Assembly: GCA_016180435.1 (NCBI GenBank)
Contig: JACPBG010000002.1
Location: 1-58,341, forward strand
Origin: Candidatus Sungiibacteriota bacterium
GTDB lineage: Bacteria > Patescibacteriota > Minisyncoccia > Sungbacterales > HO2-52-23
Direction: 5' to 3'
Length of the DNA stretch: 58,341 bases
Below, piece by piece: positions 10,860 to 56,908 of the stretch. Position numbers and translations under genes: made by a program. Position 1 is the first letter of the stretch. The number at the start of each line of letters is the position of its first letter. The notes beneath the pieces are model-generated. The model ran no database searches. It saw only the letters and a program-made list of their open reading frames with translations, and was not told where the DNA came from.

Positions 10860-12824
10860 ATGGAAATAAATGGAAATATCAGTATACGAAATTTTTGCAT
10901 ATTGGCGCATATTGATCATGGAAAATCCACTTTGGCGGACAGGTTCTTGGAAATTACCGGAACAATACCTTTGCGTGAAATGCACGAACAGTATTTGGAT
11001 ATGAATCCCCTTGAAAGAGAACGCGGCATCACTATTAAAATGACCCCGGTCCGCATGATTTGGCATACGCCAAATCATGCGGAGAACCGGTTACCAGTAA
11101 CCGGTAATTATCAATCAAGTTCAGAATATATTCTGAACCTGATTGATACTCCGGGGCATGTTGATTTCTCTTACGAAGTATCTAGGGCGCTGGCCGCGGT
11201 GGAGGGAGCGATACTTCTGGTTGATGCGACCCAGGGAGTTCAGGCCCAAACCATCGCGAATTTGCGTCTCGCTTTGGCCGAGGGGCTTTATATAATTCCG
11301 GCTATTAATAAAATCGATCTTCCAACTGCGCGCGCGGCTGAAACCAGGGAGGAAATTTTTGAGCTTTTCGCTTCAGAAGGGATCAAAGCCGGAGAAGTTC
11401 TTGAGGTCTCAGCCAAAACCGGGGAAGGGGTTTTGGAGCTGCTGGAGGCAGTGATAGAAAAAATCCCCCCTCCGGGAACCAATAAGCAGTTATCGGTAAC
11501 TAATAACCGGTTACCGGTTATCGGTGATTCAGTTCAACTGCGGGCGCTTATTTTCGATTCGCATTTTGATCCGTATAAAGGCGTTGTCGCGTATGTGAGG
11601 GTAAGGGATGGGATTTTGCGCAAAGGCGATAAAATTTTATTTTTGGCATCCGGCGCCGATGCCGATGCATTGGAGATTGGATATTTTATTCCGCGCCTTT
11701 TTTCCCAAGATAAAATTTTGGAAGGCGAGATCGGATATGTCGCGACCGGAATTAAAGAGCCGTCGAAAGTCAAGGTCGGAGACACCATAGTTAAGCGTTT
11801 AGAACTTAGAACTAAAAACTTAGAAAATAATTTGCTAAGTTCTAAGTTCTCAAATCTAAGTTCTACGGCCGTGGGGCCGTTGCCCGGATACCAAGAGCCG
11901 CAACCCATGGTTTGGGCAAGCATCTATCCGGAGGAAGCGGATGATTTTGACGAATTAAAAGACGCCATGGCGAAGCTTAAATTGAATGATGCCGCTTTCA
12001 TGTATGAGGTTGAATCCTCCGAATCGCTCGGCCGCGGTTTTCGCTGCGGATTTTTGGGGACGCTGCATTTGGAAATCGTATCCGAACGTATTCGGCGCGA
12101 GTATGATTTACAAGTCATGGTTACAACCCCTTCGGTCGCATATCGGATACGTTATGCCCGCGGCCGAGAGGAGATGATTTTTCGCGCGTCCAGCGCGCCT
12201 TCCGGAAGGGAAAAATACGTCATAGATGAGCCGTGGGCCGAGCTTAAAATTGTGACTCCGCCCGAATATATAGGCAAAATTACCGAGGTTTTGCACGAGC
12301 ATCGCGCTATCTCGGGTGATGCTAAAAATTTAGGTTCGCGGCGCATGATTTTATCCTTTTTGGCGCCGCTTAGCGAGATAATCGTGAATTTGCATGATGA
12401 GTTAAAAAGCATAACCCATGGTTATGCCTCAATGGAATATGAGGTAAGCGGCTGGAAGGAGGGAAATCTTTTGCGCTTGAATATTTTGGTCGCGGGCAAA
12501 GATATCGCGGCTTTTTCACGGATCATCCCGCGTTTGAATGCGGAACATGCAGGACGCGCTATACTTATTCGCCTGAAAGAACTTATACCCAAGACGCTTT
12601 TTCCTGTGGCGCTACAGGCGGAAACCGAAGGAAAAATAATTGCGCGTGAAACTATCCCGGCGCTTAAAAAAGACGTGACCGGATATTTATACGGCGGAGA
12701 TCGCACCCGCAAAATGAAGCTCTGGAAAAAGCAGCAAAAGGGCAAGAAGAAACTGAAAGAGCGCGGGGAGGGGGCGGTTGAGATCCCGCCGGAAGTATTT
12801 TTAAAAATTTTAAAATCCAGTTAG
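10860..12824 (+). CDS. lepA: Elongation factor 4 (LepA) with three in-frame repeat insertions
   Basis: AHIDHGKSTLADR, DTPGHVDF, NKIDL G-motifs; LepA C-terminal GYASMEYE. Start at internal Met (MEINGNISIRNF). Confidence 0.95.
   Translation: MEINGNISIRNFCILAHIDHGKSTLADRFLEITGTIPLREMHEQYLDMNPLERERGITIKMTPVRMIWHTPNHAENRLPVTGNYQSSSEYILNLIDTPGHVDFSYEVSRALAAVEGAILLVDATQGVQAQTIANLRLALAEGLYIIPAINKIDLPTARAAETREEIFELFASEGIKAGEVLEVSAKTGEGVLELLEAVIEKIPPPGTNKQLSVTNNRLPVIGDSVQLRALIFDSHFDPYKGVVAYVRVRDGILRKGDKILFLASGADADALEIGYFIPRLFSQDKILEGEIGYVATGIKEPSKVKVGDTIVKRLELRTKNLENNLLSSKFSNLSSTAVGPLPGYQEPQPMVWASIYPEEADDFDELKDAMAKLKLNDAAFMYEVESSESLGRGFRCGFLGTLHLEIVSERIRREYDLQVMVTTPSVAYRIRYARGREEMIFRASSAPSGREKYVIDEPWAELKIVTPPEYIGKITEVLHEHRAISGDAKNLGSRRMILSFLAPLSEIIVNLHDELKSITHGYASMEYEVSGWKEGNLLRLNILVAGKDIAAFSRIIPRLNAEHAGRAILIRLKELIPKTLFPVALQAETEGKIIARETIPALKKDVTGYLYGGDRTRKMKLWKKQQKGKKKLKERGEGAVEIPPEVFLKILKSS
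11085..11110. repeat. CCGGTTA-type repeat module in lepA (copy 1)
   Basis: aaccggttaccagtaaccggtaatta, encodes NRLPVTGN. Confidence 0.7.
11491..11529. repeat. CCGGTTA-type repeat module in lepA (copy 2)
   Basis: tatcggtaactaataaccggttaccggttatcggtgatt, encodes NNRLPVIGD; direct repeat of copy 1. Confidence 0.7.
11799..11866. repeat. TAGAACT heptamer-repeat hairpin in lepA
   Basis: Left arm agaacttagaactaaaaacttag, right arm ctaagttctaagttctcaaatctaagttct; outer 10 bp perfect; translated KRLELRTKNLENNLLSSKFSNLSS. Confidence 0.8.
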
Positions 12825-14490: not shown

Positions 14491-14757
14491 ATTGTTACTT
14501 ATTCTTTTTTGACATGCTCACTTGCTCCTGCGGCGCGTTCGCTAAGGGTCGGGCGCGAAATTCCGCTTTGCGGAAACCAAGCCCCGTCACCAAAATTTTG
14601 ACCGTTTCTTTGCTGCCCTCGAGTCAGCTGGCGAGATAGAACCCAAGTAACGATATGGTGTTCTTCTCTCCTTGGATGGAAACGAAAGCAGCAGTCGAAA
14701 TTTGGTGCGGGGCAAGCTTTCGCGCCCTCCCATTGTCAAAAAAGAATAAGCAACAAT
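14491..14757. repeat. Long imperfect palindrome, family A (267 nt)
   Basis: Outer arms attgttacttattcttttttgaca / tgtcaaaaaagaataagcaacaat. Inner arms caccaaaattttgac / gtcgaaatttggtg. Homologous to 33090-33384. Confidence 0.8.
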
Positions 14758-15166: not shown

Positions 15167-15201
15167 TTGAGGCTGAACCTCCCGCGGGAGGTTCAGCCTC
15201 A
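15167..15201. repeat. Perfect GC-rich palindrome (CCTCC/GGAGG family), possible terminator
   Basis: gaggctgaacctcc-cgcg-ggaggttcagcctc; no T-run after it. Confidence 0.6.
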
Positions 15202-15226
15202 AAATATCTCTATCAGTGGTTTTTAT

Positions 15227-22911: not shown

Positions 22912-22977
22912 TTTACGAAATACGAATCACTACGAATGTACGAATTTGTATATTCGTAAAAATTCGTATTTCGTAAA
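22912..22977 (-). repeat. 66-nt ACGAAT-repeat hairpin immediately upstream of the dnaE start
   Basis: Reverse complement is 65/66 identical to 27195-27260; outer 16 bp tttacgaaatacgaat/attcgtatttcgtaaa. Confidence 0.9.
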
Positions 22978-23097
22978 GAACGCCTCTATATTCATTATAC
23001 AAATCATTTTTCACTTCAGCAATTTTTTTAAAAACCTCAATAGATTCAAGCCGATTTTGAGATATCCACAGGTATCGACAAAATAAAATTCCCCTAA

Positions 23098-23808
23098 TCA
23101 GGGGATAAATGATTTATCAAATTTTCGCAGGCGATTCTCCATGATGATTTGCCAGTTTTCATCATCATAATACATCAATTTATCTTCCAGATAATTCGTT
23201 TCGTTCATCAGTGATTTTTCGTCCGTATGGCCGGCATAGAAAAGATGGCTAAGTTCATGGGTTAAAACATGTTCGGAGTCTTCATCCCACACGACAATCG
23301 CCGCATTTTTATCCGCATTGGCGTATCCGATATACGGCTCCTCGGTTTCTATTAGGAATTTACTGCCGTCCAGAGTTTCGATTTCGAGTTCTTTGTGAAT
23401 ATACATCGTGCGATGGATAATTCCTATTGTTATATCCGAGGAATTGTTTTTGCCAATATAGGCAATTTCGGAAAGCACTAAATGGGGATTCCATTCATAA
23501 TATAACGATGGGTCGAAAAAGTCATACGTGTCTAAGTACGCCGGAGCATACCAGAGAGCAAATGCGTCAATGGAGAAAGTTATAGAGAAATTTTTTTTAA
23601 AAACATGCGATGCGGTTTCAAAAATTTTACGGATTTTCGATTCAAACTCGCTACGATCTTTCTGTCCGTACATAAGAATTTGATCCAGTAGCACCGTAAC
23701 GCTTACGTTTCGAATTTGTACGGAAGGTTTATCTTCTTGCGGAAGGGCATGGCTGGGCATGGAAAAAAATAGCGCCAGCGCGGCCAAGAGTATATGGAGC
23801 ATACGCAT
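23098..23808 (-). CDS. Secreted HExxH zinc metalloprotease-like protein
   Basis: Signal peptide MRMLHILLAALALFFSMPSHA; HELSHLFYAGH motif. Confidence 0.6.
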   Translation of the reverse strand: MRMLHILLAALALFFSMPSHALPQEDKPSVQIRNVSVTVLLDQILMYGQKDRSEFESKIRKIFETASHVFKKNFSITFSIDAFALWYAPAYLDTYDFFDPSLYYEWNPHLVLSEIAYIGKNNSSDITIGIIHRTMYIHKELEIETLDGSKFLIETEEPYIGYANADKNAAIVVWDEDSEHVLTHELSHLFYAGHTDEKSLMNETNYLEDKLMYYDDENWQIIMENRLRKFDKSFIP

Positions 23809-23988
23809 AGCACATTTCCATATTTTGTAAGAGAAGCTATGCTAAAAGTAACTCCATATAAAATTTTCGTCAACCCCGTTAGAGAGAAACAAAGATTCTC
23901 ATTTATCTTCAAGTATATCTGCGTTTATAAAAACCCTGTATGTATAAATCACCGTGTTTGTTTCTTTTTAACGGGGTCAACAACTAAT

Positions 23989-24705
23989 ATGAATTATATT
24001 ATAGGAATTGATGAAGCGGGACGAGCCGCCCGCAAGCGGGCGAGCTTCGCCCATCACCAATTTATTATTGGTATAGATGAAGCGGGACGAGGGCCTTTGG
24101 CGGGACCGGTAGTTGTTGCGGGAATTAAAATAGAACTTAGAACTAAGAATTTAGAACTTAGAAATATACGGGATTCAAAAAAACTGACGGCGCGGCAGAG
24201 AGAAGAATGGTTTAGAATTTTAACCAATCATCCGAAAATAGAATATGCGGTGGCAAAGATTTATCCTAAGGTAATTGACCGGATAAATATCTCGCAGGCG
24301 GCGAATCTCGGGGTTTTACGGGTATGCCGTAAATTATCAACGAATAACGGTAAAACATCATCGAATAACGAATCTCGTACGAATATACGAATTACGAATT
24401 CCAGTATTCGTAAATTCGTAAAGGATTCGTTATTCGCTGATGCCATATTTTTGGACGGCGGTTTGAAACTTCCCCGGCGCATTTCTCATGAGGTGATTAT
24501 AAAAGGCGATGAAAAAATTCCGGCGATTTCCGCCGCATCTATTATTGCCAAAGTAACGCGGGATCGTTTAATGTTCCGTCTCCACAAAAAATATCCCAAG
24601 TACCGGTTTGATCTGCACAAAGGATACGGAACGAAACTTCATTATGTGCTGATACGGAGATTCGGGCATTCTGTCATCCACCGGAAGTCGTTTCGGCTCT
24701 CTTGA
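23989..24705 (+). CDS. rnhB: Ribonuclease HII with three in-frame insertions
   Basis: IIGIDEAGRGPLAGPVV catalytic N-terminus; C-terminal KGYGT motif; start at MNYIIG. Confidence 0.9.
   Translation: MNYIIGIDEAGRAARKRASFAHHQFIIGIDEAGRGPLAGPVVVAGIKIELRTKNLELRNIRDSKKLTARQREEWFRILTNHPKIEYAVAKIYPKVIDRINISQAANLGVLRVCRKLSTNNGKTSSNNESRTNIRITNSSIRKFVKDSLFADAIFLDGGLKLPRRISHEVIIKGDEKIPAISAASIIAKVTRDRLMFRLHKKYPKYRFDLHKGYGTKLHYVLIRRFGHSVIHRKSFRLS
24025..24063. repeat. GC-rich element (variant core GGGCGAGCTTCGCC) inside rnhB, flanked by 27-bp duplication
   Basis: Flanks 23998-24024 and 24064-24090 differ at 3 of 27 nt. Confidence 0.85.
24131..24165. repeat. TAGAACT heptamer repeats inside rnhB
   Basis: tagaacttagaactaagaatttagaacttagaaat, encodes IELRTKNLELRN. 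Confidence 0.8.
24362..24436. repeat. ACGAAT heptamer hairpin (75 nt) inside rnhB
   Basis: Outer 13 bp perfect: cgaataacgaatc / gattcgttattcg. Length is a multiple of 3; encodes NNESRTNIRITNSSIRKFVKDSLF. Confidence 0.85.
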
Positions 24706-26216: not shown

Positions 26217-26501
26217 ATGGTAGTTCGAATGAGACATACCAAGGGCAAGCGTAATCGGGTGCGTTCGCATCACGCGTTAAAATCCGTGCATTTTGCGGCA
26301 TGCGGCCACTGTGGCAAGCCGCTTCGCCCCCACATTATGTGCCAAAACTGCGGCTATTATGGAGGCCGACAGGTCGTTGATGTTCTCGCGAAATTGGACA
26401 AAAAAGAGCGCAAAAAACGGGAAAAAGAATTGCATGCGCATGAAGAAAAATCCGCTGAAGAAGGGAAGACGCTGAATGCGGAAGAATTGTCACATCGATA
26501 A
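26217..26501 (+). CDS. rpmF: 50S ribosomal protein L32 with long K/E-rich C-terminal extension
   Basis: RHTKGKRNRVRSHHAL...CGHCGKPLRPHIMCQNCGYY. Confidence 0.9.
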   Translation: MVVRMRHTKGKRNRVRSHHALKSVHFAACGHCGKPLRPHIMCQNCGYYGGRQVVDVLAKLDKKERKKREKELHAHEEKSAEEGKTLNAEELSHR

Positions 26502-26502
26502 A

Positions 26503-26637
26503 TATCTAAATCCTAAACCCTAATCTCTAAACAAATCCAAAACCCAAATCTCAAAATTTATAGTGAGCTTATCGAATCTACGTTTTAGAATTTTGAAATT
26601 TGAGATTGTTTAGAATTTAGAGATTAGAATTTAGAGA
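26503..26637. repeat. 135-nt imperfect hairpin of TCTAAA/TTTAGA-type repeats between rpmF and nusB
   Basis: Left arm atctaaatcctaaaccctaatctctaaac..., right arm ...gtttagaatttagagattagaatttagagat. Confidence 0.8.
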
Positions 26638-26647
26638 TTAAAATTTT

Positions 26648-27193
26648 ATGGCCAGCAGGCACCTTGCAAGATCAATCGCCATGCAGTCGCTCTTTGAGTG
26701 GGATTTTCAAGGTAAGGATACCAAATCCCTGCCGGAAATCGTGGAGCGGAATAAAAAAGAATTCGGCCCGGGACTTGATGAGGAGTACGGTTTTATTGAC
26801 CGCATGATTAGCGGCGTTGTGGAAAATCTGGATAAGATAAATGCGATTATCGAAAAAGCCGCGCCCGAATGGCCGATTGAACAAATTACTTCGATTGACC
26901 GCGCTGTCCTGCGTCTTGGGCTTTACGAGTTGTTATTCGGCAATCATGATGAGGTTCCTCCTAAGGTTGCGATTAATGAGGCGATTGAACTTGCCAAATC
27001 ATTTGGCGGCGAGTCATCCGGCAGATTTATCAACGGGGTTTTAGGCACTGTGTATAGAGAAATAGGGGAGCCGGGTAAAGATTATCCGAATCGGGCCGAA
27101 CTTGCCAAGAAAAGGGAAGAGGAGAAAGAGAAGGAAGAAGCGGAGAAAAAAGAGGAAACAGGAAAAGAAGAAGAGGAGAAGAAAGAAAAATAA
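26648..27193 (+). CDS. nusB: Transcription antitermination factor NusB with E/K-rich tail
   Basis: [17 protein letters not shown] start, NusB fold length, then a 40-aa EEKEKEE low-complexity tail. Confidence 0.9.
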
Positions 27194-27194
27194 C

Positions 27195-27260
27195 TTTACG
27201 AAATACGAATTTTTACGAATATACGAATTCGTACATTCGTAGTGATTCGTATTTCGTAAA
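27195..27260 (+). repeat. 66-nt ACGAAT-repeat hairpin immediately upstream of the rnc start
   Basis: Ends 5 nt before the GTG start at 27266; 65/66 identical to the reverse complement of 22912-22977. Confidence 0.9.
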
Positions 27261-27265
27261 ATTTC

Positions 27266-33089: not shown

Positions 33090-33384
33090 ATGTGGTTTTT
33101 CAACCACTCCGATTTCAGACACGACTCACGCACTCCTGCGGTGCGTTCGCTAAGGGTCGGGCGAAGTTTTTCCGTCCGCCAGTTGGCGGACGGAAAACCA
33201 AACCACGTCACCAAAATTTTGACCGTTTCCGTGCCGCCTCGAATAAGCTGGCGGGACATGCTTTGTATTTCTTAACAGATGTTCATCTCTGCTCGGATGG
33301 AAACGAAAGCGGCAGTAAAAATTTGGTGCGGGGCAAGCAACTTCGCCCTCCCATTATCTGAAATCGAAATGGTTGAAACCACAT
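33090..33384. repeat. Long imperfect palindrome, family A (295 nt)
   Basis: Outer arms atgtggtttttcaaccactccgatttcaga / tctgaaatcgaaatggttgaaaccacat; internal blocks shared with 14491-14757. Confidence 0.8.
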
Positions 33385-35618: not shown

Positions 35619-35797
35619 CGCAGGAGCCGTAAAAGAGTATAATGGAAATACTTTAAAGGAGGTACCGAAACGCAGAATTGCTGCGTGTAAGTAATGCAAA
35701 GGTCGAGGCTGAAATCAGCTTACAGCAATCAGCATTCAGCTATCAGCTATGATAAAAGCCGAAAGCAGAAAGCCGAGAGCTTCAAGCTGCGATAGTA

Positions 35798-36263: not shown

Positions 36264-37022
36264 ATGCGTTTTGATATCATAACTATATTCCCCGAAGTAT
36301 TTGAATCATATTTAAATGCCTCAATGATCAAGCGCGCACGAGCTAAAAAACTCGTGGATATTCGGATACACGATTTACGCAATTATGTAAAAGTAGCCCC
36401 TCGACCCGCTTCGCTCTCGCTTCAGCGAGGCGAGCAGGCTCGGGGCAACTTGCCGCTTCGGCGGCAAGTTGATGACCGGCCGTACGGAGGAGGACCCGGC
36501 ATGGTTTTAAAAGTTGAGCCGATTATAAAAGCAATTGAAAAACTTTTAAAACCAATTTCCAATTCCCAATTCCCAATTTCCAAACGAAAGAAGGTAAAAA
36601 TCATTTTATTTTCCGCGGCCGGGAAGCAGTTTGACGCCAAAATAGCTGCGGATTTTGCCAAAAAATACGACCGCATTGTAATGATTGCCGGCCATTATGA
36701 AGGAATAGACGAACGGATTGGTAAAATTATTTTTGAAAATTGGAAATTGGAAATTGAAAATTTGTCGGTAGGTCCTTATGTGCTGACAGGCGGCGAATTG
36801 CCCGCCCTCGTTGTCGTGGATGCCGTATCACGCCACATTCCCGGATTTTTGGGAAAAGCGGAATCATTGGAAGAGAAACGATACGGCGTAGGGCTTCCTG
36901 TTTATACCCGCCCCGAAGTATTTTCGTACAAGGGTAAAAAATATCACGCGCCTAAGATTCTTCTTTCTGGCGACCATAAAAAAATAGAAATTTGGAGGCG
37001 CAAACAAAAAAGAGATATTTAA
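36264..37022 (+). CDS. trmD: tRNA (guanine37-N1)-methyltransferase TrmD with three in-frame insertions
   Basis: MRFDIITIFPEVF start, VDDRPYGGGPGMV, GHYEGIDERI motifs. Confidence 0.92.
   Translation: MRFDIITIFPEVFESYLNASMIKRARAKKLVDIRIHDLRNYVKVAPRPASLSLQRGEQARGNLPLRRQVDDRPYGGGPGMVLKVEPIIKAIEKLLKPISNSQFPISKRKKVKIILFSAAGKQFDAKIAADFAKKYDRIVMIAGHYEGIDERIGKIIFENWKLEIENLSVGPYVLTGGELPALVVVDAVSRHIPGFLGKAESLEEKRYGVGLPVYTRPEVFSYKGKKYHAPKILLSGDHKKIEIWRRKQKRDI
36393..36470. repeat. GC-rich multi-hairpin insertion in trmD
   Basis: Starts with the 15-mer aagtagcccctcgac shared with 4510-4524; contains gcaacttgccgcttcggcggcaagttg hairpin. Confidence 0.75.
36551..36584. repeat. CCAATTT heptamer repeats in trmD (left arm)
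   Basis: accaatttccaattcccaattcccaatttccaaa, encodes ISNSQFPIS. Confidence 0.8.
36731..36763. repeat. AAATTGG heptamer repeats in trmD (right arm)
   Basis: ttttgaaaattggaaattggaaattgaaaattt, complementary to 36551-36584; encodes ENWKLEIENL. Confidence 0.8.
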
Positions 37023-37757: not shown

Positions 37758-39161
37758 ATGGAAAATCAAGGGTTTCAATTTCCAAAAGGGTTTTTTGGGG
37801 CCGAAGCTAAAGGCTTCGGCGGGAAATTTAGTGAGCCGGGTGAAGCCCGTGCGAGCGTTAAAAATTTCCCCGGGGTTCGCCTAGGGGGCGAACGGCAGCC
37901 GAAGGCCGGGCACTTCCCCAAAGGTTTCCTTTGGGGAAGTGCTACGAGCGCGCATCAGGTAGAAGGGAACAATCGTAACGACTGGACCGAGTGGGAACAT
38001 TTTAACGCTAAACGCCTAACGCTAAACGCTAAATCAAAGAATTGGCCGGATTATATTCTAAAAAATTATCCCAGTCCCTTGCAGGAGGAAAATTATATTT
38101 CTGGCCGCGCGTGTGACCACTACAACCGCTTTCGCGAGGATTTTGATATTGCTAAATCCCTTGGCCACAACGCGCACCGTTTTTCCATTGAGTGGTCACG
38201 GATTGAGCCGGAGGAAGGGAGGTGGGATGAAAAAGAAATCAAGCATTACCGCGAAGTGCTTTGCTCTTTGCGCGAGCGGGGAATGGAGCCGTTTGTGACC
38301 CTTTGGCATTGGACTAATCCGGTTTGGTTTGCGGAGCGCGGGGGATGGTTATGTAAAAATGCGCCTTTTATTTTTGCGCGGTTTTGTAAAAAAGCTGTCG
38401 AGTGTTTTCCGGATGTTAAATACTGGATAACGATGAATGAGCCGGAGGCATTTCCGCGTCACGGCTATTTGCTTAAAGATCGTCCGCCGGCCCGGGGCGA
38501 AATAATTTCTATGTTCCGCGCCTTAAGGAATCTGGCGCGCGCGCATAAGGCGGCGTATCTTGCGATGAAAGAATTTAACTCCGCTCTTTTTATTGGATAT
38601 TCCGAGAGTTCTGTTTTTTTTGAGCCATTCAACCGCATGCCGCATAATATTTTAGCATTTAAGTTATTGCGCTGGTGGCGAAATAACCCATTTTTCTGTC
38701 GCATGTCGCATGATTCTGATTTTATAGGATTGCAGTTCTATTTTCATAGCCGAGTGCGTATTCATCCAAAATCGCAATGGTGGTTTCAATATAACGAAAA
38801 TAAAAAAGTAAGCGATTTTGGCTGGGAAATTTATCCGGAAGGCATTTATCGTGTTTTAAAGGATCTAAAAAAACATAATAAGCCGATATTTATTACAGAG
38901 AACGGCTTGGCGGATGCGCGTGATATTTATCGCGAAAAATTTATAAAGGAGCATTTGCGCTGGATGCATAAAGCGATTTCTGAAGGCGTTGATGTGCGCG
39001 GCTATTTTCACTGGTCGCTTTTGGATAATTTTGAATGGCAGCAGGGCTTTTGGCCCAGGTTCGGACTGGTGGAGATTGATTATAAAACTCAGGAACGTAG
39101 AATTAGACAAAGTGCGTATGAATATGCTAAAATCGTAAAAGCAAATGCAATAGATCTTTGA
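37758..39161 (+). CDS. Glycoside hydrolase family 1 beta-glucosidase with N-terminal insertion
   Basis: FPKGFLWGSATSAHQVEG, TMNEP and ITENG catalytic motifs. Confidence 0.9.
   Translation: MENQGFQFPKGFFGAEAKGFGGKFSEPGEARASVKNFPGVRLGGERQPKAGHFPKGFLWGSATSAHQVEGNNRNDWTEWEHFNAKRLTLNAKSKNWPDYILKNYPSPLQEENYISGRACDHYNRFREDFDIAKSLGHNAHRFSIEWSRIEPEEGRWDEKEIKHYREVLCSLRERGMEPFVTLWHWTNPVWFAERGGWLCKNAPFIFARFCKKAVECFPDVKYWITMNEPEAFPRHGYLLKDRPPARGEIISMFRALRNLARAHKAAYLAMKEFNSALFIGYSESSVFFEPFNRMPHNILAFKLLRWWRNNPFFCRMSHDSDFIGLQFYFHSRVRIHPKSQWWFQYNENKKVSDFGWEIYPEGIYRVLKDLKKHNKPIFITENGLADARDIYREKFIKEHLRWMHKAISEGVDVRGYFHWSLLDNFEWQQGFWPRFGLVEIDYKTQERRIRQSAYEYAKIVKANAIDL
37801..37910. repeat. 110-nt GC-rich multi-hairpin insertion near the GH1 N-terminus
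   Basis: gccgaagctaaaggcttcggc, gggaaattt...aaatttccc, ttcgcc...ggcgaa hairpins; flanked by degenerate duplication of the FPKGF codons. Confidence 0.8.
38003..38034. repeat. CTAAACG heptamer repeats inside GH1
   Basis: taacgctaaacgcctaacgctaaacgctaaat, encodes NAKRLTLNAKS. Confidence 0.75.
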
Positions 39162-39920: not shown

Positions 39921-39960
39921 TATCTTATGCTTATCCGCGACCGCGGATAAGCATAAGATA
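39921..39960. repeat. Perfect 19-bp-arm palindrome
   Basis: tatcttatgcttatccgcg-ac-cgcggataagcataagata. Confidence 0.85.
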
Positions 39961-40003: not shown

Positions 40004-41824
40004 ATGTCCTGGCTTCTTATTTCAATACTTTCCAATACTATCCTTGCGTTCTCGGCGGTTTTCGATAAATTACTTCTTGGACGGAGCATTAAAGATCCGT
40101 TGATTTATGCTTTTTGGACTGCTATCTCTTCTCTGGCGGCAGTAGTATTGATTCCATTCGGCTCAATTTCGGTTTCGTGGGATATTTTTTGGCTTGCATT
40201 GGCAACTGGGGCAATTTGGTTTTGGGGAGCGCTTTTTTTCATGATTGCCATTTCGCGCGGAGAGGCATCCACCGCTTTGCCGCTTATCGGCGCACTTGCT
40301 CCGATTGCCACGTTTTTTACTTCAGCCGCATTTTTGGATGGCGGTCTCGGGGTCACGGAATATTTTGGTTTTTTCTTCCTGGTTTTCGGAGGATTTATTT
40401 TTTTGATTGCCGAGGAGCCGAAACTGCGCATGCCGGTATTTATCGCGGCCGGTTTGTCCGCTGTTTTTTTCGGGATTTCAAACGCCCTGTTGAATCCGGT
40501 ATTTTTACATAGTTCTTTCGTAGCCGGTATTTTCTGGACAAGGATAGGCGCGGTCATTGCAGCCGCAACACTGCTTTTTTCTTCCAAGGTGCGCGAGCGT
40601 CTTTTTGCGGTCGCGCACGCGGGAAATATCCGCGATTGGATAATGTATTGGGGAAACCGCATACTGGCTGCCGGAGGAGTAATTCTTAATTTTTACCCGT
40701 TTGTTTTGGCGCACCCGGCCTTGGTGGATGCGGCCAACGGTTTTAAATATGCGGTTATCGTGTTTTTGGGATGGATTATTCTCGGGGAGCGATTTCGCGG
40801 CAAAATATTGATGCTAAAAGTTTTGGCAACTGCTTTGATCATCGGCGGACTTTTATGGTTCGGGCTTGGCGAATATGCCTCAAGCATTCCGGTTGACGGG
40901 AGCCGGGAAATTCAATGGGGGATTACGTTTTCCCATAAATTTTCCCGTGATTTGGGTCTGAATTGGCGGGAGAATTTCAATGCGATACTTTATGAGGTCA
41001 AACCTCATAAGATTAGATTGGTGGCGTATTGGGATGAGATTGAGCGCGAGCGCGGCAAATATGATTTTTCTGATCTTGACTGGATGATGGACCGGGCTCG
41101 CGAATCGGGAACAGAGATTATATTGGCAGTTGGACTTCGGGTGCCGAGATGGCCGGAATGCCATGTGCCCGAATGGGCACAGAACTTAGAACTTAGAACT
41201 CAGAATTTAGCAGTACACGAATATATGCGGGCGGTGGTGGAAAGATATAAAAATAATCCGGCGATTAAAATGTGGCAGGTGGAAAATGAGCCGTATCTGC
41301 GGTTCGGGGAGTGTCCGGAACGCGAGAGTGGATTTTTAGAAAGAGAAATTGCGCTGGTAAAATCAGTTGATCCATCCCGGCCAATACTTGTAACCGACGG
41401 CGGAGAATTCGGGGATTGGTATCGCGCGTCCAAGGCCGGAGATGTCTTTGGAACAACCATGTATCGCCGTGCATATCCGCGCTTTATAGGGCCGATATTC
41501 GGCGTGATTGAATATCCTTTGTCGCCTGCTTATTTCAGATTTAAGGAAAAGTTGATTCGCTGGATTGTGGGTAATTATGATAAAAAATTTATAGTAATTG
41601 AATTGCAGGGCGAGCCGTGGAGTTCGGTCCAGTTGCGCGATGTTTCACTGGAAGAGCAGTTTCGCATATTTGATCTTGAATATTTCCGTGATACTATCCG
41701 TTACGCTCGCGATACCGGATTTGATGAATATTATTTATGGGGCGCGGAGTGGTGGTATTGGCTGGGTAAAAAACATAATGACTGGAGATTTTGGGATGAA
41801 GCCAAGGGCTTGCTACGCAATTAA
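40004..41824 (+). CDS. Fusion protein: EamA/DMT-like 10-TM domain + glycoside-hydrolase-like TIM-barrel domain
   Basis: About 290 aa of TM helices, then a WDEIERERGKYDFSDLD...QVENEPY (GH5/GH42-like NEP) region. Confidence 0.7.
   Translation: MSWLLISILSNTILAFSAVFDKLLLGRSIKDPLIYAFWTAISSLAAVVLIPFGSISVSWDIFWLALATGAIWFWGALFFMIAISRGEASTALPLIGALAPIATFFTSAAFLDGGLGVTEYFGFFFLVFGGFIFLIAEEPKLRMPVFIAAGLSAVFFGISNALLNPVFLHSSFVAGIFWTRIGAVIAAATLLFSSKVRERLFAVAHAGNIRDWIMYWGNRILAAGGVILNFYPFVLAHPALVDAANGFKYAVIVFLGWIILGERFRGKILMLKVLATALIIGGLLWFGLGEYASSIPVDGSREIQWGITFSHKFSRDLGLNWRENFNAILYEVKPHKIRLVAYWDEIERERGKYDFSDLDWMMDRARESGTEIILAVGLRVPRWPECHVPEWAQNLELRTQNLAVHEYMRAVVERYKNNPAIKMWQVENEPYLRFGECPERESGFLEREIALVKSVDPSRPILVTDGGEFGDWYRASKAGDVFGTTMYRRAYPRFIGPIFGVIEYPLSPAYFRFKEKLIRWIVGNYDKKFIVIELQGEPWSSVQLRDVSLEEQFRIFDLEYFRDTIRYARDTGFDEYYLWGAEWWYWLGKKHNDWRFWDEAKGLLRN
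41180..41213. repeat. TAGAACT heptamer repeats inside the EamA-GH gene
   Basis: cagaacttagaacttagaactcagaatttagcag, encodes QNLELRTQNLA. Confidence 0.8.
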
Positions 41825-47240: not shown

Positions 47241-47339
47241 GATCGCGGATAGACGCGGATTTTTACTTACGCGGATAAACGCGGATAATTAAATTTATCT
47301 GCGTGAATCAGCGTATTGATCCGCGTAGATCAGCGTTTC
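47241..47339 (+). repeat. GCGGATA heptamer-repeat hairpin abutting the 16S 5' end
   Basis: Left arm has cgcggat(a) x4, right arm has atcNgcg x4-5. Confidence 0.8.
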
Positions 47340-47408
47340 TAAATGAGGATTTGATCCTGGTCCAGGATGAACGCTGGCGGCGTGGATAAGGCATGCAAGT
47401 CAAACGGG

Positions 47409-47508
47409 CACGTGCTTCGCACGGAGAACTTAGAACTAAGAACTTAGAACCAAGCAGTTTCTAAGATCTAAGTTCTAAACGCTAAGTTCTGCGCGCGGAG
47501 TGCGCGCC
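47409..47508 (+). other. 16S insertion 1 (V1/helix 6): clamp hairpins + TAGAACT heptamer hairpin
   Basis: cgtgcttcgcacgga + heptamer hairpin 47425-47490 + gcgcgcggagtgcgcgc. Confidence 0.8.
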
Positions 47509-47591
47509 AGTGGCGAACGAGTTAGTAATACCCTGGTACGTACCCCAGAGACGGGAATAACTCCGCGAAAGCGGAGCTAATACCCGATAGT

Positions 47592-47862
47592 CCCAGCACA
47601 TATTTTTGGAAATAAATAAGCGCAGTGCGCCTGCGCTCTCATCAAGAAATACTTAGTTTAAGAGAAGGGTAATGATGACGGAAGTAATTAGTACACTTAT
47701 TAATGCACTGAAAAAAGCAGTTCTCTTTTCGCTTGTATTGAGAAACTCTCGAATGAACTTCATGGTATACCCTATGTAAACGTGAAATATCTATAACTAA
47801 TTATATATAATTATAAAAATCTGTCAAGTGTTGTTAATTTGATTCCAAAAATATGTGCTGGG
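47592..47862 (+). other. 16S insertion 2 (V2 region): 271-nt AT-rich intervening sequence
   Basis: Closed by a perfect 19-bp stem: cccagcacatatttttgga / tccaaaaatatgtgctggg. Confidence 0.8.
47653..47763 (-). CDS. Speculative 36-aa hydrophobic peptide ORF antisense to 16S insertion 2
   Basis: MKFIREFLNTSEKRTAFFSALISVLITSVIITLLLN; weak SD; may be chance. Confidence 0.15.
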   Translation of the reverse strand: MKFIREFLNTSEKRTAFFSALISVLITSVIITLLLN

Positions 47863-48111
47863 TAAATCACTTAGATTGGCTCTGGGAGCGGCCTAGGTCC
47901 TATCAGCTAGTTGGCGGGGTAATGGCCCACCAAGGCAATGACGGGTAGGGGGCGTGAGAGCGCGACCCCCAACGGCGACAATGAGATACGAGTCGCACAC
48001 CTACGGGTGGCAGCAGTCAAGAACATTCGACAATGGGCGAAAGCCTGATCGAGCGACGCCGCGTGCAGGATGAAGGCCTTCGGGTCGTAAACTGCTTTTT
48101 AAGGGGAGGAA

Positions 48112-48281
48112 GCCGTGCTTCGCACGGAATGTCTAATTCCTAATTCACCTAATTCCTAATAAAATGCCCAATAAAAAAATGTCTAATGTCCAAAAACAGC
48201 TTTTGGGCTTTGGCAATTTGATATTTTGAATTTTATTAGAAATTAGAAATTAGATGTTGGAAATTTCGCGCGGAGCGCGGA
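48112..48281 (+). other. 16S insertion 3 (V3 region): same clamps as insertion 1 + TAATTCC/TTAGAAA hairpin
   Basis: 15-mer cgtgcttcgcacgga at 48114-48128, identical to 47411-47425; 3' clamp cgcgcggagcgcgg. Confidence 0.8.
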
Positions 48282-48593
48282 TTGACTGTACCCTTAGAAT
48301 AAGGCGCTGCAAACCTCGTGCCAGCAGCCGCGGTAATACGAGGGCGCCAAGCGTTATCCGGATTTATTGGGCGTAAAGGGTCTCCAGGCGGTTTGATTAG
48401 TCGGGCGTTAAATCCCGCTGCCTAACGGCGGGGCTGCGTTCGAAACGGTCAAACTAGAGGGATGGAGAGGGGATGGGAACTCACGGTGTAGGGGTGAAAT
48501 CCGTTGATATCGTGGGGAACACCAAAGGCGAAGGCACATCCCTGGCCATTTCCTGACGCTCATGAGACGAAAGCGTGGGGAGAGAATAGGATT

Positions 48594-49390
48594 GATCGCT
48601 CGTTTGCATATTGTCCGCTCAAAAACTACGGGCTGGACAAATGGAGCCGAAAACAGAACGGGAGCCCTCCGGCAGAGCCGGTTTCCCTTGTTCTGTTTTC
48701 TCACCATTTGTTAACCAGCCCTCCGTTAATTTCGCGGAGCAATACGCAAACTCGCTTATTAGAGGGATAATAAGATGTTAAAAGTATTGTTTTTTTCGGC
48801 ACTGTTTATTGTATTCGTGGCAAAAACTAACACTAGCGAAAACAGTGTTGATATTATATTCTACAGTTTTATGTCAGGAGTTTCGTTTGTCTTAGTTTTT
48901 GTTAACATTTATTTGAAACTTAAAGCGAACCGGAAGGGTATCCGGTGAGAACAACTAGTCCCTCCGATGAAAATCGGAGATAAAATTCCACTGTATCGGT
49001 GAAAGGCCTACTGCGGAAACGCAGGGTTAACGCCGAGGCAACGCTTACACAATTTTCGAACGTTAATTACTAATTTTTAATTCGTAATTAGGAATTGGCA
49101 ATTGCGTAAGCAGAGTCCGTAGAGACTGAACGTGGAACCCAGCTCTTTGTTGAAGCAGGGCAACTTGTTTGCCCCTTTAGCAAAGAACTGGTGATGTCAC
49201 AGTCCGAACTATGCAGTAATGCATAGAGCTAATCAGAAATGCGTTAGCCGGCAGCAAGTTTTGGAATTCTGGATTTTTAAATTTCTGATTTGCTTGCCCC
49301 GTAGTGAACGTGCAACGTTCTACCATCGGGGTTTAGAAATTAGAAATTCGGATTTAGAAATTCCAAATTTGTTGCGAGCAACAAATTTGT
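48594..49390 (+). mobile_element. 16S insertion 4: about 0.8-kb putative intron in the 790 loop, no homing-endonuclease ORF
   Basis: Splits the universal AGGATT|AGATACCC. Boundaries can be drawn with U before the 5' splice site and G as the last inserted nt. Confidence 0.6.
48775..48948 (+). CDS. Speculative 57-aa two-TM peptide ORF inside insertion 4
   Basis: GAGGGA 8 nt upstream of ATG; MLKVLFFSALFIVFVAKT...VSFVLVFVNIYLKLKANRKGIR. Confidence 0.2.
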   Translation: MLKVLFFSALFIVFVAKTNTSENSVDIIFYSFMSGVSFVLVFVNIYLKLKANRKGIR

Positions 49391-49751
49391 AGATACCCTA
49401 GTATTCCACGCCCTAAACGTTGCGCGCTCGCTGTTCCGAGTATCGACCCTCGGAGTGGCTAAGCTTACGCGTTAAGCGCGCCGCCTGGGAAGTACGAGCG
49501 CAAGCTTAAAACTCAAAGGAATAGACGGGAGCTCGCACAAGCGGTGGACCATGTGGTTCAATTCGACGACAACCGAGGAACCTCACCAGGGTTTGAAATT
49601 CTAATGAAGTTCCGAAGAAATTCGGAATGTCTCACAAGGACATTAGAACAGGTGATGCACGGTCCTCGTCAGTTCGTGATGTGAATTGTTCCCTTAAGTG
49701 GGGTAACGAACGCAACCCCCGTGGTATGTTATATGTGTCATACCAGACTGC

Positions 49752-49936
49752 CCCCCTCCAAGCCCGAAGGGCTTGGAGGCACAGATGTTCACAGATTTCT
49801 AACGGATTTTCACAGATCACAGATTCACACGGAAACCTTAACAGGCTACATCCGTAATTATCCGTGATCTGTGGTAATCTGTGGAATAATCTGTGTTAAT
49901 CCGTGGAAAACTCGTCATTGCGGGTTTGGAGGGGGG
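49752..49936 (+). other. 16S insertion 5 (helix 40 region): GC hairpin + CACAGAT heptamer hairpin
   Basis: ctccaagccc-gaa-gggcttggag, then cacagat repeats paired with atctgtg repeats. Confidence 0.8.
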
Positions 49937-50067
49937 AGGAAGGCGGGGATGACGTGAGATCAGCGTGTCCCTTTGATATCCTGGGCTACACACGTGGTAC
50001 AATGGCGCGTACAATGGGTTGCAAAGCCGCGAGGCGAAGCTAATCCCATAAAACGCGCCCCAGTTCA

Positions 50068-50098
<31 letters not shown>

Positions 50099-50159
50099 AG
50101 GAATCGCTAGTAAACGCGGATCAGCTACGCCGCGTTGAATACGTTCTCGAGCTTTGTAC

Positions 50160-51087
50160 TCGGGTCGCTATGCGGTTCAATAAGCGAGCAGGTTTAAATC
50201 CTGCCAAGAAAATGCAGTTTTTTGAAGCGAAATCGCAGTCCTTCGAGGGGCGACCCTCAGGATGAAGGGCGAAAGTAGCAGCTGCCAGCTTGAATATTCA
50301 TCGAGGCGCGATACAGGCGGTGACCCTGCGAGTACATGGGGAAACCACTGCATAAAATGCCTTATCGCGTATACCGAATATCGAGACGGCAGAGAACCGT
50401 TTATTGGGTTACCATAGGAGATCTTGCATAATTCTCGTAGTATATCTATACTCGAGATAGGAACGTGGATAACTTCGTTCCAATGTTATGCAAGAAGTCA
50501 GCAGAGTTCGTAGTAGCAAGAGTGATTCTAGATGCCGCAATCCGCGGCTTCGAGCGCCTCTTGCGAAGGAACAAATTCAGGCAAAAAAACTTCATCCGCA
50601 GTATATTGCGGGATTCATTGATGGCGAGGGTTCGTTCGTCGTGAGTTTCGGGCGCCATAAAACGCTCAAGCGCGGCATTGAAATCCGCGTTGAATTCACC
50701 ATCGAACTTCGCGCCGACGACAGAGAAATTCTTTATCGGATATTAAAAACCATCGGATGCGGAAAAATTTATGACGCATCATATGAACGATACGGATGGT
50801 ATCCGCATGTCAAATATAAAATCACAAGTACCAAGGATATGGAAAAATATCTGATTCCGTTTCTGGATAAAACGCCGTTACAGGCCAAGAAGCGAAAAGT
50901 ATATAGGGTATTTCGTGAAATTGTTTTGATGGTGCGGAGAAAAGAGCATTTGACCGATAAAGGATTTAAAAAGATCTTCAGATTGCGCAACGAATATCGT
51001 AAATACGGAAAGAAGCGCCTGAAAACCGCCAGGGTACGGGAAAACCGTTCGCCCGGTGGTGTGAGACAATAAGTAAAATTGATCTTA
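50160..51087 (+). mobile_element. 16S insertion 6a: putative intron with LAGLIDADG ORF
   Basis: Begins right after conserved CTTTGTAC; ORF stop is 15 nt before ATACCGCC (51088-51095). Confidence 0.65.
50488..51072 (+). CDS. LAGLIDADG homing endonuclease (single-motif type)
   Basis: YIAGFIDGEGSF motif, 194 aa, inside 16S. Confidence 0.9.
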   Translation: MQEVSRVRSSKSDSRCRNPRLRAPLAKEQIQAKKLHPQYIAGFIDGEGSFVVSFGRHKTLKRGIEIRVEFTIELRADDREILYRILKTIGCGKIYDASYERYGWYPHVKYKITSTKDMEKYLIPFLDKTPLQAKKRKVYRVFREIVLMVRRKEHLTDKGFKKIFRLRNEYRKYGKKRLKTARVRENRSPGGVRQ

Positions 51088-51095
51088 ATACCGCC

Positions 51096-52008
51096 AATTA
51101 ATAAAGTGCCCGGCAGCTTAATTGACTAGTTGGTTAAAGTCCAACCTCCCATTGCATATGGGACGTAGCCAAAAAAATAGCAGTCCACTATCCGTAAGGT
51201 TGTGGATAAAGGGCTTGAGGCAAATGGCAGCCTATGATACGATTAGAATATTGAACGATCGCCGCGGGCGGTCAGCGGGAAGTTCAATTATTTCCATCAT
51301 AGGATGCCGGGAATAGTTAATTAAGTGACCCGGGGAGATCCTAAACAGTCGAGTCATAATACTCGTTTAGGAAGTCAGCTGGCGTCATAGTACCGAGCAC
51401 TCAACCTGCACTACGCTCGTTCTGCGTTATGCGCAGTGCAAGTTGAGTGCTCGGGAAGGAGCCAACCAAAATTATGCTATCTCCTGATTATATTGTTGGA
51501 TTGACTGACGGTGAAGGTAGCTTTACCGCATATATACGGCCACCCAAGAAAGAGCATGGTTCTAAAAATTATCGGATTGAATGTCATTATTACATAAAAC
51601 TGCGTGAAGACGACCGATCACTTTTAGAAAATGTCAAAAATTTCTTTAGAACAGGACGGGTGGTATTTCAGCGGGAAAACCGGACGAATCATCATCATAT
51701 GTATCGATTTGAGGTTACGAACTTGCATGATCTGCAAAATTTAATAATTCCTTTTTTTGAAAAACATAAACTTCAAAGCAAGCGAATTAAAGATTTTGAA
51801 TTATTCAAGAAGATCGTTAAAGCGGTACTGAATAAAGAACATCAAACCGAAAATGGATTGCGAAAGATTCAACAATGGAAAAAGAAGATGCATCAATATA
51901 TGGGCTCGCCGAATACGGGAAACCCGTACGTTCGGTCTCGATATAGAAAGTCGAGGGTTCGATTAAAGAATCGGACTGGAAACGGGAAATAGACTCAATT
52001 ATCCCAAT
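51096..52008 (+). mobile_element. 16S insertion 6b: second putative intron with LAGLIDADG ORF
   Basis: ORF stop is 17 nt before conserved CCGTCACG resumes at 52009. Confidence 0.65.
51447..51992 (+). CDS. LAGLIDADG homing endonuclease (single-motif type)
   Basis: YIVGLTDGEGSF motif, 181 aa, inside 16S. Confidence 0.9.
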   Translation: MLGKEPTKIMLSPDYIVGLTDGEGSFTAYIRPPKKEHGSKNYRIECHYYIKLREDDRSLLENVKNFFRTGRVVFQRENRTNHHHMYRFEVTNLHDLQNLIIPFFEKHKLQSKRIKDFELFKKIVKAVLNKEHQTENGLRKIQQWKKKMHQYMGSPNTGNPYVRSRYRKSRVRLKNRTGNGK

Positions 52009-52330
52009 CCGTCACGTCAAGGAAGCCGGGAGTAGGTGAAGGCTGTCGCAAGACAGTTCAATCTAAACTCGGTGACAGGGACGAAGTCGTAACAAGGCAT
52101 CCCTAGCGGAAGCTGGGGATGGAACAATCTTTTTAGGGTTATATTCGAGCAAAGCATCAAGAAATCCGGATAAAACCGGATACGCTTGGAGAAGGCCCTC
52201 CGTTCTAACAAGAATGCGGTTTTCTCTCGCATTTGCTCACTACCTTAGGTTGATACCGCAATTTTTTGCGGGAATAAGTGTTGATCTCTAACTTTCAAAT
52301 GGAGATCGTGCGGATCCGTCGCTAACGGAT

Positions 52331-55886: not shown

Positions 55887-55924
55887 TGGGTGTACTAGGG
55901 ATTGAACCTAGGACCTCGTCATTA
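55887..55924 (-). pseudogene. tRNA-Ile-like 3' piece (from the anticodon loop to acceptor TACACCC-A)
   Basis: Minus strand: TAATGACG-AGGTC-CTAGG-TTCAATC-CCTAG-TACACCC-A. Matching 5' strand GGGTGTA lies inside 55950-56051. Confidence 0.45.
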
Positions 55925-55949: not shown

Positions 55950-56051
55950 TGCGCGCACTAGGGATCGAACCTAGGACCTCGTCATTATCAGTGACGCGCT
56001 CTGAGCTATACACCCGTAAAAAGGTGGGAGGGCCAGCTGAGCTATGCGCGC
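55950..56051 (-). tRNA. tRNA-Ile(GAU)-like gene with a 37-nt D loop (about 28-nt insertion)
   Basis: GCGCGCA/TGCGCGC acceptor, GCTC/GAGC D stem, CGTCA-CTGATAA-TGACG anticodon arm, CTAGG-TTCGATC-CCTAG T arm; function uncertain. Confidence 0.5.
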
Positions 56052-56849: not shown

Positions 56850-56870
56850 TCCAAAAGAAATATTTCAAAT

Positions 56871-56900
56871 CAAAATCTCCGGCATATGCCGGAGATTTTG
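56871..56900. terminator. Bidirectional terminator
   Basis: Perfect palindrome aaaatctccggcat/atgccggagatttt. Confidence 0.8.
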
Positions 56901-56908
56901 ATTGCCAT

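Follow-up and report, generated by a model that had tools for sequence, protein, structure and literature searches.

The TAGAACT repeat module, which recurs in three protein genes and in the 16S rRNA gene of a Candidatus Sungiibacteriota bacterium, is probably one family within a class of DNA-level hairpin modules built from 7-nt and 10-nt repeats. On this reading, to which we give a probability of roughly 0.6, the modules are copied between loci, passively translated where they lie in genes, and filtered for open reading frames (ORFs). The DNA analysed comprises positions 1 to 58,341 of contig JACPBG010000002.1 (assembly GCA_016180435.1); this whole 58,341-nt stretch is the window, and all array counts and densities are those of its 58 kb. 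Repeat periods were assigned with Tandem Repeats Finder (TRF), and chance expectation was taken from 40 dinucleotide-preserving shuffles of the window. Hairpins were recognised as pairs of complementary arms and scored by RNA fold z-scores. Inserts in the 16S rRNA were placed with the Rfam model, and protein families were assigned with Pfam at E<=1e-3.

In the mechanism that we favour, tandem 7-nt (and 10-nt) units, usually in two complementary arms that form a hairpin, would arise and spread at the DNA level. The arrays would be of the heptanucleotide simple-sequence-repeat (SSR) class, with replication slippage as their source. Whole modules (arm, loop and arm, plus GC clamps in rRNA) would then be copied between loci, and the inverted arms and the dispersal may come from template switching or from some copying activity. 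Modules would persist only where extra length is tolerated, in intergenic spacers, at variable tips of rRNA helices (h6, h17 and others) and in surface loops of proteins. Within proteins, only in-frame copies that have lost in-frame TAG or TAA would survive, and passive translation of these would yield hydrophilic peptides, short and loop-forming, of which ELRTKNLE is an example. Modules in rRNA would be retained in the mature molecule. The process would be pervasive in this lineage of the candidate phyla radiation (CPR; Sungbacteria-like Parcubacteria), with the same permissive loops remodelled repeatedly.

The TAGAACT family in three protein genes and 16S rRNA

Period-7 arrays of TAGAACT or CTTAGAA units are found by TRF at all four sites, and at the positions, named by the sequence-only reading that first described the module. 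The lepA copy (11799..11866, +) consists of four units, a 14-nt gap and 4.4 complementary units, and is read as LELRTKNLENNLLSSKFSNLSS in the loop following VGDT. TRF resolves it into arrays at 11799-11825 (TTAGAAC x3.9) and 11835-11865 (CTAAGTT x4.4); the arms at 11800-11825 and 11840-11865 are 85% complementary, and the fold has a z-score of -3.6. The copy in helix 6 of 16S rRNA (47411..47505, +) is a composite of a 5' clamp CGTGCTTCGCACGG, an (AGAACTT)n arm, a loop, a (TCTAAGT)n arm and a 3' clamp GCGCGGAGTGCGC, with period-7 arrays at 47425-47450 and 47460-47478 and a fold z-score of -6.9. It forms an 81-nt insertion at the helix tip, where the Rfam 16S model has 3 nt. Both copies are full hairpins, as had been claimed.

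The other two copies are single-armed. The array in rnhB (24131..24165, +; TRF 24131-24163) has 4.7 units, is read as IELRTKNLELRN and is unstructured (z -0.1). The ORF at 40004-41824 carries 4.3 AGAACTT units (41180..41213, +; TRF 41181-41210) read as QNLELRTQNL, again unstructured (z +2.2). Peptides and unit variants (ctaaaaa, ctaagaa and ctcagaa) agree with the earlier description. The EamA part once assigned to this third protein was not recovered: at the Pfam threshold used, the ORF matches solely glycoside-hydrolase (GH) TIM-barrel families, at residues ~342-489.

Three perfect units do put TAG in every frame, as frame translation confirms. The observation that the module is read in the same phase in three proteins is uninformative, because a (CTTAGAA)n array yields one cyclic peptide, LELRT*N, whichever of its three frames is read; the reverse strand of the perfect array encodes LSSKF*V. 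Each coding TAGAACT module has exactly one open sense frame. Its in-frame TAG is replaced by AAA, AAG or CAG (both in-frame TAG positions are CAG in the GH ORF), and the in-frame TAA of the lepA 3' arm is replaced by TCA. All coding TAGAACT modules keep the reading frame without a stop codon, as do the other modules checked and all remaining period-7 arrays within ORFs. No open frame exists in the full 16S h6 hairpin, the h17 module, the period-10 rRNA hairpins or the hairpin between rpmF and nusB.

The proposal that the element is filtered by selection for open frames is thus partly borne out. The single open frame of each coding module and the lower density of arrays in coding DNA (see below) agree with it. 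However, the T>A variant CTAAGAA, which is common to lepA and rnhB, is also present in the non-coding 16S copy, and was therefore probably inherited from a common source copy, not selected gene by gene. Removal of the hairpins from mRNA was judged unnecessary, as the coding copies are open and in frame.

There is practically no chance that an assembly or sequencing artefact explains the modules. Repeats are prone to mis-assembly, and contigs of the host do break at another repeat; but 8 contigs, derived from at least 5 sequencing runs, encode the exact LepA protein, and the contigs that carry it match the window at 99.97-100% with zero indels. The 68-nt lepA module is byte-identical at 5/5 loci fetched from independent assemblies. 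In addition, reading frames are kept intact and the rRNA copies prolong native helices. We rejected the artefact reading on the identity of these independently assembled contigs.

Heptamer arrays across the window and in LepA

The four TAGAACT sites are real, but they are only a small share of a much larger set. TRF reports 58 tandem arrays in the window, of which 22 have period 7, against a shuffle mean of 1.85 and a maximum of 5. Periods 14 (6 vs 0.45), 21 (3 vs 0.1) and 10 (9 vs 2.1) are likewise in excess, while periods 8, 9 and 11-13 stand at chance level. The period-7 arrays, TAGAACT sites included, carry 2.3-5.4 copies. Their units vary by site (TACGAAT, CTAAACC/TTTAGAG, CCAATTC/TTGGAAA, CTAATTC/ATTAGAA, AACGCTA, ACCGGTT, ATCAGCT and others), and many arrays are matched with a complementary array to form a hairpin. 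The sequence-only reading was correct about the arrays and hairpins; as a distinct element its module does not hold up, being one family within a class of period-7 and period-10 repeat hairpins. Array density per kb is 0.28 in coding DNA, 3-4x below the 0.81 of intergenic DNA and the 1.03 of rRNA; the chance value is 0.03.

These arrays belong to the class of heptanucleotide SSRs, which includes the short tandemly repeated repetitive (STRR) heptamers of cyanobacteria, TAACTGA of Beggiatoaceae, Cyanobacteria and Bacteroidetes, and GGGNATC of Xanthomonas and Nostoc (PMC4679880, PMC4692102); both papers also cite the long prokaryotic SSRs of Mrazek and colleagues (2007). Bacteria have an excess of heptameric SSRs, most of which lie between genes and vary among close relatives (PMC4679880, PMC4692102). 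The window arrays resemble them in their 7-nt tandem units of ~3-5 copies, their strong over-representation, the many units per genome, their occurrence across phyla, and the way in which arrays at one locus differ among close relatives, both in sequence and in length. TAACTGA, as TAGAACT, puts a stop codon in every sense frame, which limits its coding locations (PMC4679880), and heptanucleotide repeats are under-represented in ORFs and mainly intergenic (PMC4692102). In contrast, 13/24 period-7 arrays of the window lie in frame inside ORFs, at 9x chance density, and 5 lie in 16S rRNA. The pairing of complementary arms, the modules common to several loci and the parallel period-10 class further set the window arrays apart.

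A 24-nt GAACTTA pattern occurs at at least 118 loci in GTDB species representatives of many phyla. At 25 of these 118 loci a complementary partner array is present within 200 nt, and 5 of the 118 are situated in long ORFs. Four of the five ORFs are recognisable (HrpB helicase, a solute-binding protein, ArgRS and Fmt) and read ELRTQNLEL or ELRTKNLEL in frame. As the same heptamer sits in unrelated proteins of other phyla, the same peptide arises convergently from the same DNA. The 118 loci also hold 217 other period-7 arrays, in 148 unit classes. We rejected GAACTTA as a special, horizontally spread heptamer, since composition-matched controls are at least as frequent in viral contigs (3 loci vs 8 and 14). 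Its spread across phyla thus reflects the general abundance of heptanucleotide repeats.

Each well-tested coding array in the window coincides with extra residues relative to solved structures of homologues. LepA has three inserts compared with T. thermophilus EF4, among them residues ~332-352 (the TAGAACT hairpin) and ~229-242 (the ACCGGTT array). RNase HII has, compared with 3o3g, a ~5-aa insert at the TAGAACT arm and a ~40-aa insert at a second hairpin, which lies within the ORF at 24356..24442 (+), has ACGAAT-type heptamer arms that are 86% complementary, and folds with a z-score of -8.6. The lepA and rnhB hairpins are thus palindromic, in frame within ORFs of unrelated genes, and insertions relative to solved homologues. 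A GH1 beta-glucosidase has an (AACGCTA)x4.3 array (38003..38033, +) within a 14-aa insertion. In the GH ORF at 40004-41824 the insertion status of the array is weakly supported, its homologues being too distant. An example of a peptide spanning inserts is LELRTKNLENNLLSSK.

TrmD has inserts of ~9 and ~6 aa at its two arrays. The first, (CCAATTC)x4.6 at 36552..36583 (+), encodes ISNSQFPIS, and its unit has no stop codon in any frame. The second, (TTGGAAA)x4.3 at 36733..36762 (+), is 88% complementary to the first. The two arrays occupy separate loops, 156 nt apart, that flank the conserved GHYEGIDER catalytic core, so a single hairpin insertion cannot account for them. The pair may represent chance reuse of one unit family in opposite orientation, or long-range pairing.

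Those LepA homologues that bear names come from Candidatus Sungbacteria and the Parcubacteria group, which places the bacterium in the CPR. We surveyed LepA in 83 CPR orthologues from metagenomes. The three insert loops have short baselines (medians of 14, 7 and 13 aa), and expansions of them occur at 35, 26 and 18 loci, respectively. Across these orthologues the insert sites are loops of variable length, and in an AlphaFold model of low overall confidence (mean pLDDT, the predicted local distance difference test, of 62.6) residues 91-105, 227-243 and 334-356, the last being the TAGAACT module, have pLDDT <50. Period 7 is the best period in 25/35 expansions at the first loop, site A, with autocorrelations of 0.4-0.66; among conserved control segments it is best in 15/405, with a maximum autocorrelation of 0.37 (Fisher p=1e-22). 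Many of the loop expansions fold as hairpins, with z-scores down to -8.7. In the window, site A (11085-11108, +) holds a related module, AACCGGTTACCAGTAACCGGT, read as NRLPVTGN, and site C (11472..11525, +) holds a palindromic ACCGGTT array with a 21-nt superperiod, read as NNRLPVIGD.

The same loops carry different repeats in different relatives. The closest LepA relative (79% identity) has no ELRTKNLE-type peptide and carries (AATTTCC)x4.3 at the loop of the TAGAACT hairpin. At that loop, heptamer hairpins of (AATGCTN)/(AGCATTC) or period-10 hairpins of CGCGGA type are seen in other relatives, and CGCGGA-type decamer hairpins fill LepA loops in loci L121 and L128. The TACGAAT unit is found at site A in L127. 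In L121, a 4.4-copy array of CCTAATT, the unit class seen in the 16S helix-17 insert of the window, lies close to the 5' end of lepA. Site A of L161 has a TAGAACT-type array reading DLELRTWSLE. Arrays of relatives share the exact unit class with the window in 5/17 cases, against 7/212 in the cross-phylum background (p=7e-4), a difference that AT-rich composition may explain in part.

It is highly improbable that the peptides are a selected protein feature, a heptad-like linker or interaction motif (7-nt x 3 = 7 aa) to which nucleotide similarity would be secondary. They are hydrophilic and located in loops, and some LepA inserts do persist across several related species (the L196/L197/L199/L164/L188 group). 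However, the same DNA is present in 16S rRNA and in intergenic spacers; complementary arms encode unrelated peptides, arrays cover only 1-1.5 heptads, and the nearest LepA orthologue, like other relatives, does not have the peptide. No Pfam match covers the array peptides of the window proteins. This largely refutes the protein reading and upholds the earlier view of a nucleic-acid-level element that is not a protein domain.

Some further features of LepA deserve mention. Two distinct loops (11085-11108 and 11472-11525) share a palindromic AACCGGTTACC-type module, read as NRLPVTG and NRLPVIG, and NQLPV- or NQLLV-like peptides stand at the same loops in several relatives. Comparison of the site-A inserts of two related species, L196:1678-1797 and L197:1678-1806, reveals a 9-nt tandem duplication (CAAAGTTCA), an example of frame-preserving slippage. 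At site A of L215 and L223 (proteins P0022, P0027, P0041 and others) there is a ~170-aa insert that matches Pfam PF13366 (PD-(D/E)XK nuclease-like), a whole domain inserted at the repeat hotspot.

Copying of modules and related repeat systems

Near-identical copies are dispersed in the window. An intergenic TACGAAT hairpin at 22912..22978 (z -8.3), which ends 4 nt from the dnaE start codon, and another at 27194..27260 (z -7.1), which fills the nusB-rnc spacer, are 98.5% identical over 67 nt in inverted orientation (22912-22978 vs 27260-27194), including irregularities that are not part of the repeat. TAGAACT copies are 83-96% identical. The lepA and 16S h6 hairpins are colinear through arm, loop and arm (83% over 66 nt), and their irregular units occupy the same positions, opposing one another as a symmetric internal loop. 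The rnhB arm matches the 16S 5' arm at 25/26 positions (96%), T>A variant included.

A second composite module, in helix 17 of 16S rRNA (48114..48280, +; z -4.5), has the same GC clamps as that of h6 around (CTAATTC)n and (ATTAGAA)n arms. The window has exactly two instances of the 14-mer CGTGCTTCGCACGG, which is a mini-hairpin with a UUCG tetraloop; they mark the 5' edges of the h6 (47411-47424) and h17 (48114-48127) modules. At the 3' edge of both stands GCGCGGAG(Y)GCGC, perfect at h6 and mismatched at one position at h17. Between these shared clamps the heptamer arms are different. From such comparisons, whole modules appear to be copied between loci.

Comparable arrangements exist elsewhere. 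In the acidobacterial genome Vicinamibacterales SMAG_U8798 (L006, L030, L059 and L060), intergenic hairpins with GAACTTA arms share irregular units and a related loop around a CACGCG core, and 3/4 are flanked by ATCAACTTA. On sequence, this looks like a dispersed family similar to repetitive extragenic palindromic (REP) sequences, built on heptamer arms. Two relatives (L182:1675-1827 and L167:1430-1579) have a GTGCTTCGG motif, related to the 14-mer of the 16S clamps, in the 3' half of their hairpin inserts at LepA site A.

[quoted passage not shown] We consider this unlikely, although much of the evidence for copying speaks for it as well: the inverted copies at 98.5%, the irregular units common to lepA, 16S and rnhB, the identical GC clamps at two 16S sites, and the Vicinamibacterales families with their conserved loops and flanks. 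Unit classes also recur at different loci in related genomes, and the window has another, MITE-like repeat with 24-nt terminal inverted repeats. Nevertheless, we detected no transposase, RAYT or reverse transcriptase in the 58-kb window and no target-site duplications at the modules, and the flanks of the TACGAAT and TAGAACT copies share no direct repeat. These copies have no fixed termini, their ends differing in unit number. Unit number varies in general, some copies are single-armed (rnhB, the GH ORF and GH1), the trmD arms sit in different loops, and arbitrary control heptamers form arrays equally often.

The absence of such enzymes and duplications also weighs against the DNA-level repeat class that we prefer, as do several other results. 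No unit-number polymorphism was seen among the 8 independently assembled contigs or among cluster members, a weak test given that the strains are nearly clonal; the comparison thus lends ongoing slippage no support. Growth of a heptamer array by a single unit inside an ORF is a frameshift. The 21-nt superperiods in lepA (11472-11518) and rnhB (24329-24370) are compatible with growth by three units at a time or with insertion of a block. A scan of metagenomes of the Joint Genome Institute (JGI) gave no further instance of the exact lepA/16S hairpin subfamily, and its copy number comes from the window. Finally, similarity between low-complexity arrays can be inflated by convergence.

Among known systems, the Rickettsia palindromic elements (RPEs) of Ogata et al. 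(2000, 2002) come close. Where PMC10969869 treats them, they are palindromic selfish DNA found in frame in housekeeping genes. The window modules share with them, as far as that account goes, a palindromic, selfish-DNA-like character, in-frame location in unrelated housekeeping genes, at positions that may be compatible with the fold, a host with a small genome, and predicted translation as extra segments. According to the same account, RPEs are ~100-150 bp long, form defined families each with a conserved peptide, and are not built of short tandem repeats. In contrast, the window modules are 30-90 nt, degenerate, variable in unit number, sometimes single-armed, and present also in rRNA helices. 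By analogy, they would work like RPEs without being members of an RPE family, from which their description sets them apart.

REPINs are extragenic and tied to RAYTs, and MITEs have terminal inverted repeats and target-site duplications. The window modules resemble both as short dispersed hairpin repeats with near-identical copies in either orientation in intergenic spacers. They differ in that neither RAYT nor target-site duplications were found in the window and in that many copies lie in coding sequence or rRNA. Coding palindromes of Nematomorpha mitochondria are also long inverted repeats inside functional protein genes with both arms translated; however, both of their arms are conserved protein regions under amino-acid selection (PMC6649704), and the arms in the window are lineage-specific insertions of tandem repeats.

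We did not find described in the literature the combination seen here, in which repeat-armed hairpins are common to protein genes and rRNA and, throughout a CPR lineage, repeatedly reshape the same loops of a protein. The CPR are known for insertion-rich rRNA genes and idiosyncratic extra protein segments. In the window, some short ORF-less rRNA insertions are the same kind of DNA, 7- and 10-nt repeat hairpins, as in-frame inserts of housekeeping genes, and one family is common to lepA, rnhB, a glycosidase and helix 6 of 16S rRNA. This connects three subjects: simple-sequence repeats of bacteria, selfish palindromes inside genes (the RPE paradigm), and the way in which expansion segments of rRNA and insertions in protein loops originate. 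It also illustrates how junk-like DNA can lengthen the loops of proteins and the helices of rRNA. LepA, with three loops remodelled by different repeat units among the 83 relatives, is a testable system. In work on CPR genomes, modules of this sort can lead to errors in 16S-based taxonomy, in gene calling and in the alignment of proteins. A bolder proposal, which we think quite unlikely, is that repeat-armed hairpins, with arms of tandem 7- or 10-nt units and in many cases a GC-rich cap or clamp, could form a hitherto unrecognised class of DNA elements that propagate themselves across phyla through some copying activity and, in the CPR, are a main source of rRNA expansion and insertion segments and of lineage-specific protein loops. 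If true, one mechanism would serve for two well-known oddities of the CPR.

Inserts of the 16S rRNA gene and other features of the window

The 16S rRNA gene (47339-52134), typical of the CPR, is ~4.8 kb long and has six insertions. Its 3' exon (51941-52134), located by cmscan, lies past a ~1.78-kb interruption that starts near 50163 and contains two LAGLIDADG endonuclease ORFs (50488-51072 and 51447-51992) and a match to a group-II D1-D4-like Rfam model (50458-50571). Other inserts are 803 nt in the conserved 790 loop and 250 nt at model position ~188. The helix-17 tip insert measures 159 nt against the Rfam 16S model. At model position ~1157, an insertion at 49780..49908 (+) forms a hairpin with period-10 arms CACAGATTTT and ATCTGTGGTA. 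Directly 5' of the gene, another hairpin (47262..47343, +) has period-10 arms of ACGCGGATAA and TCCGCGT type, and a (TTAGAAA)x4.3 array (49333..49362, +) lies at the 3' end of the 803-nt insertion.

In CPR rRNA genes, insertions lie at the tops or bases of stem-loops; long ones have LAGLIDADG ORFs, and short ones, below 200 bp, lack ORFs (PMC11270868). The window 16S gene has both, and its repeat copies correspond to the short, uncharacterised, ORF-less kind. Tsurumaki et al. (2024; PMC11270868) left the short ones uncharacterised, in a text without the words 'repeat' or 'hairpin'; short CPR insertions have been proposed as intervening sequences (IVSs) processed by RNase III (PMC11270868). Here, by contrast, three short inserts (h6, h17 and ~1157) are repeat-armed hairpins, one of which shares sequence with protein genes. 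The h6 and h17 inserts are extra stem-loops at variable helix tips and both are stable hairpins, as in rRNA IVSs; the window encodes an RNase III (rnc). Heptamer STRRs inside the RNase P RNA gene of heterocyst-forming cyanobacteria were reportedly described by Vioque in 1997. That case and the window both place heptamer repeats in a variable helix of a structural RNA, although the RNA and the phylum differ and the cyanobacterial repeats are not known to be shared with protein-coding genes.

Features of this kind raise the alternative that the modules are functional RNA structures under selection, acting as rRNA IVSs or expansion segments, as intergenic signals for processing, stability or termination, or as pause or regulatory stems in mRNA. 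Strong predicted stability (z -3.6 to -8.6), the helix-tip position of rRNA modules with UUCG-type clamps, intergenic hairpins that adjoin the dnaE and rnc start codons, the RNase III gene and the IVS proposal for short CPR insertions (PMC11270868) would all suit it. Single-arm copies, however, are unstructured, the intergenic hairpins have no T-run 3' of them, and the units and sequences at the same site are wholly different between relatives. Covariation in two orthologous LepA insert sets (5 and 3 sequences) gave unfavourable terms of +0.52 and +5.67 and thus does not support structural conservation; compensatory pairs are no more numerous than broken ones, and the fold is gone (z ~0) in some relatives. 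We therefore rate selected RNA structure as very unlikely, and sequence comparison leans, on thin evidence, towards passive carriage of the modules.

Further arrays lie in the intergenic spacers. The rpmF-nusB spacer is filled by a ~150-nt hairpin (26498..26649; z -4.5) with (CTAAAYC)n and (TTTAGAR)n arms, and between rpsP and khpA two adjacent arrays, (ATCAGCT)x5.3 and (AAAGCCG)x3.7, occupy 35713..35780. Measured as 22912-22977 and 27192-27263, one TACGAAT hairpin stops 4 nt from the dnaE start codon and the other 3 nt from that of rnc, and any ribosome-binding site there would lie within a stable stem. The window also has perfect or near-perfect palindromes of 36-40 nt that contain no tandem repeats (15167-15202, 56868-56903, 1132-1171 and 39921-39960). 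At least three of them stand at or across gene ends and may be terminators or another hairpin family.

The MITE-like repeat of ~265 nt occurs at 14491-14757 and 33098-33378. Its terminal inverted repeats of ~24 nt are 96% and 91% complementary, and its interiors share 77-97% identity. Of the five LepA contigs that were assembled independently, four (L122, L123, L124 and L126) stop at window position 14603, within this repeat. The longest rnhB ORF (23794-24705) begins with an N-terminal extension of ~88 aa that has no RNase HII homology and overlaps the upstream peptidase gene; the extension holds an inverted repeat (23873-23977), and translation probably begins at a start codon further downstream. 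A 31-nt direct repeat (96.8% identical; 55894-55924 and 55957-55987) overlaps the tRNA-Ile(GAT) gene at 55950-56015 (-) and resembles the partial tRNA duplications left by integrating elements.

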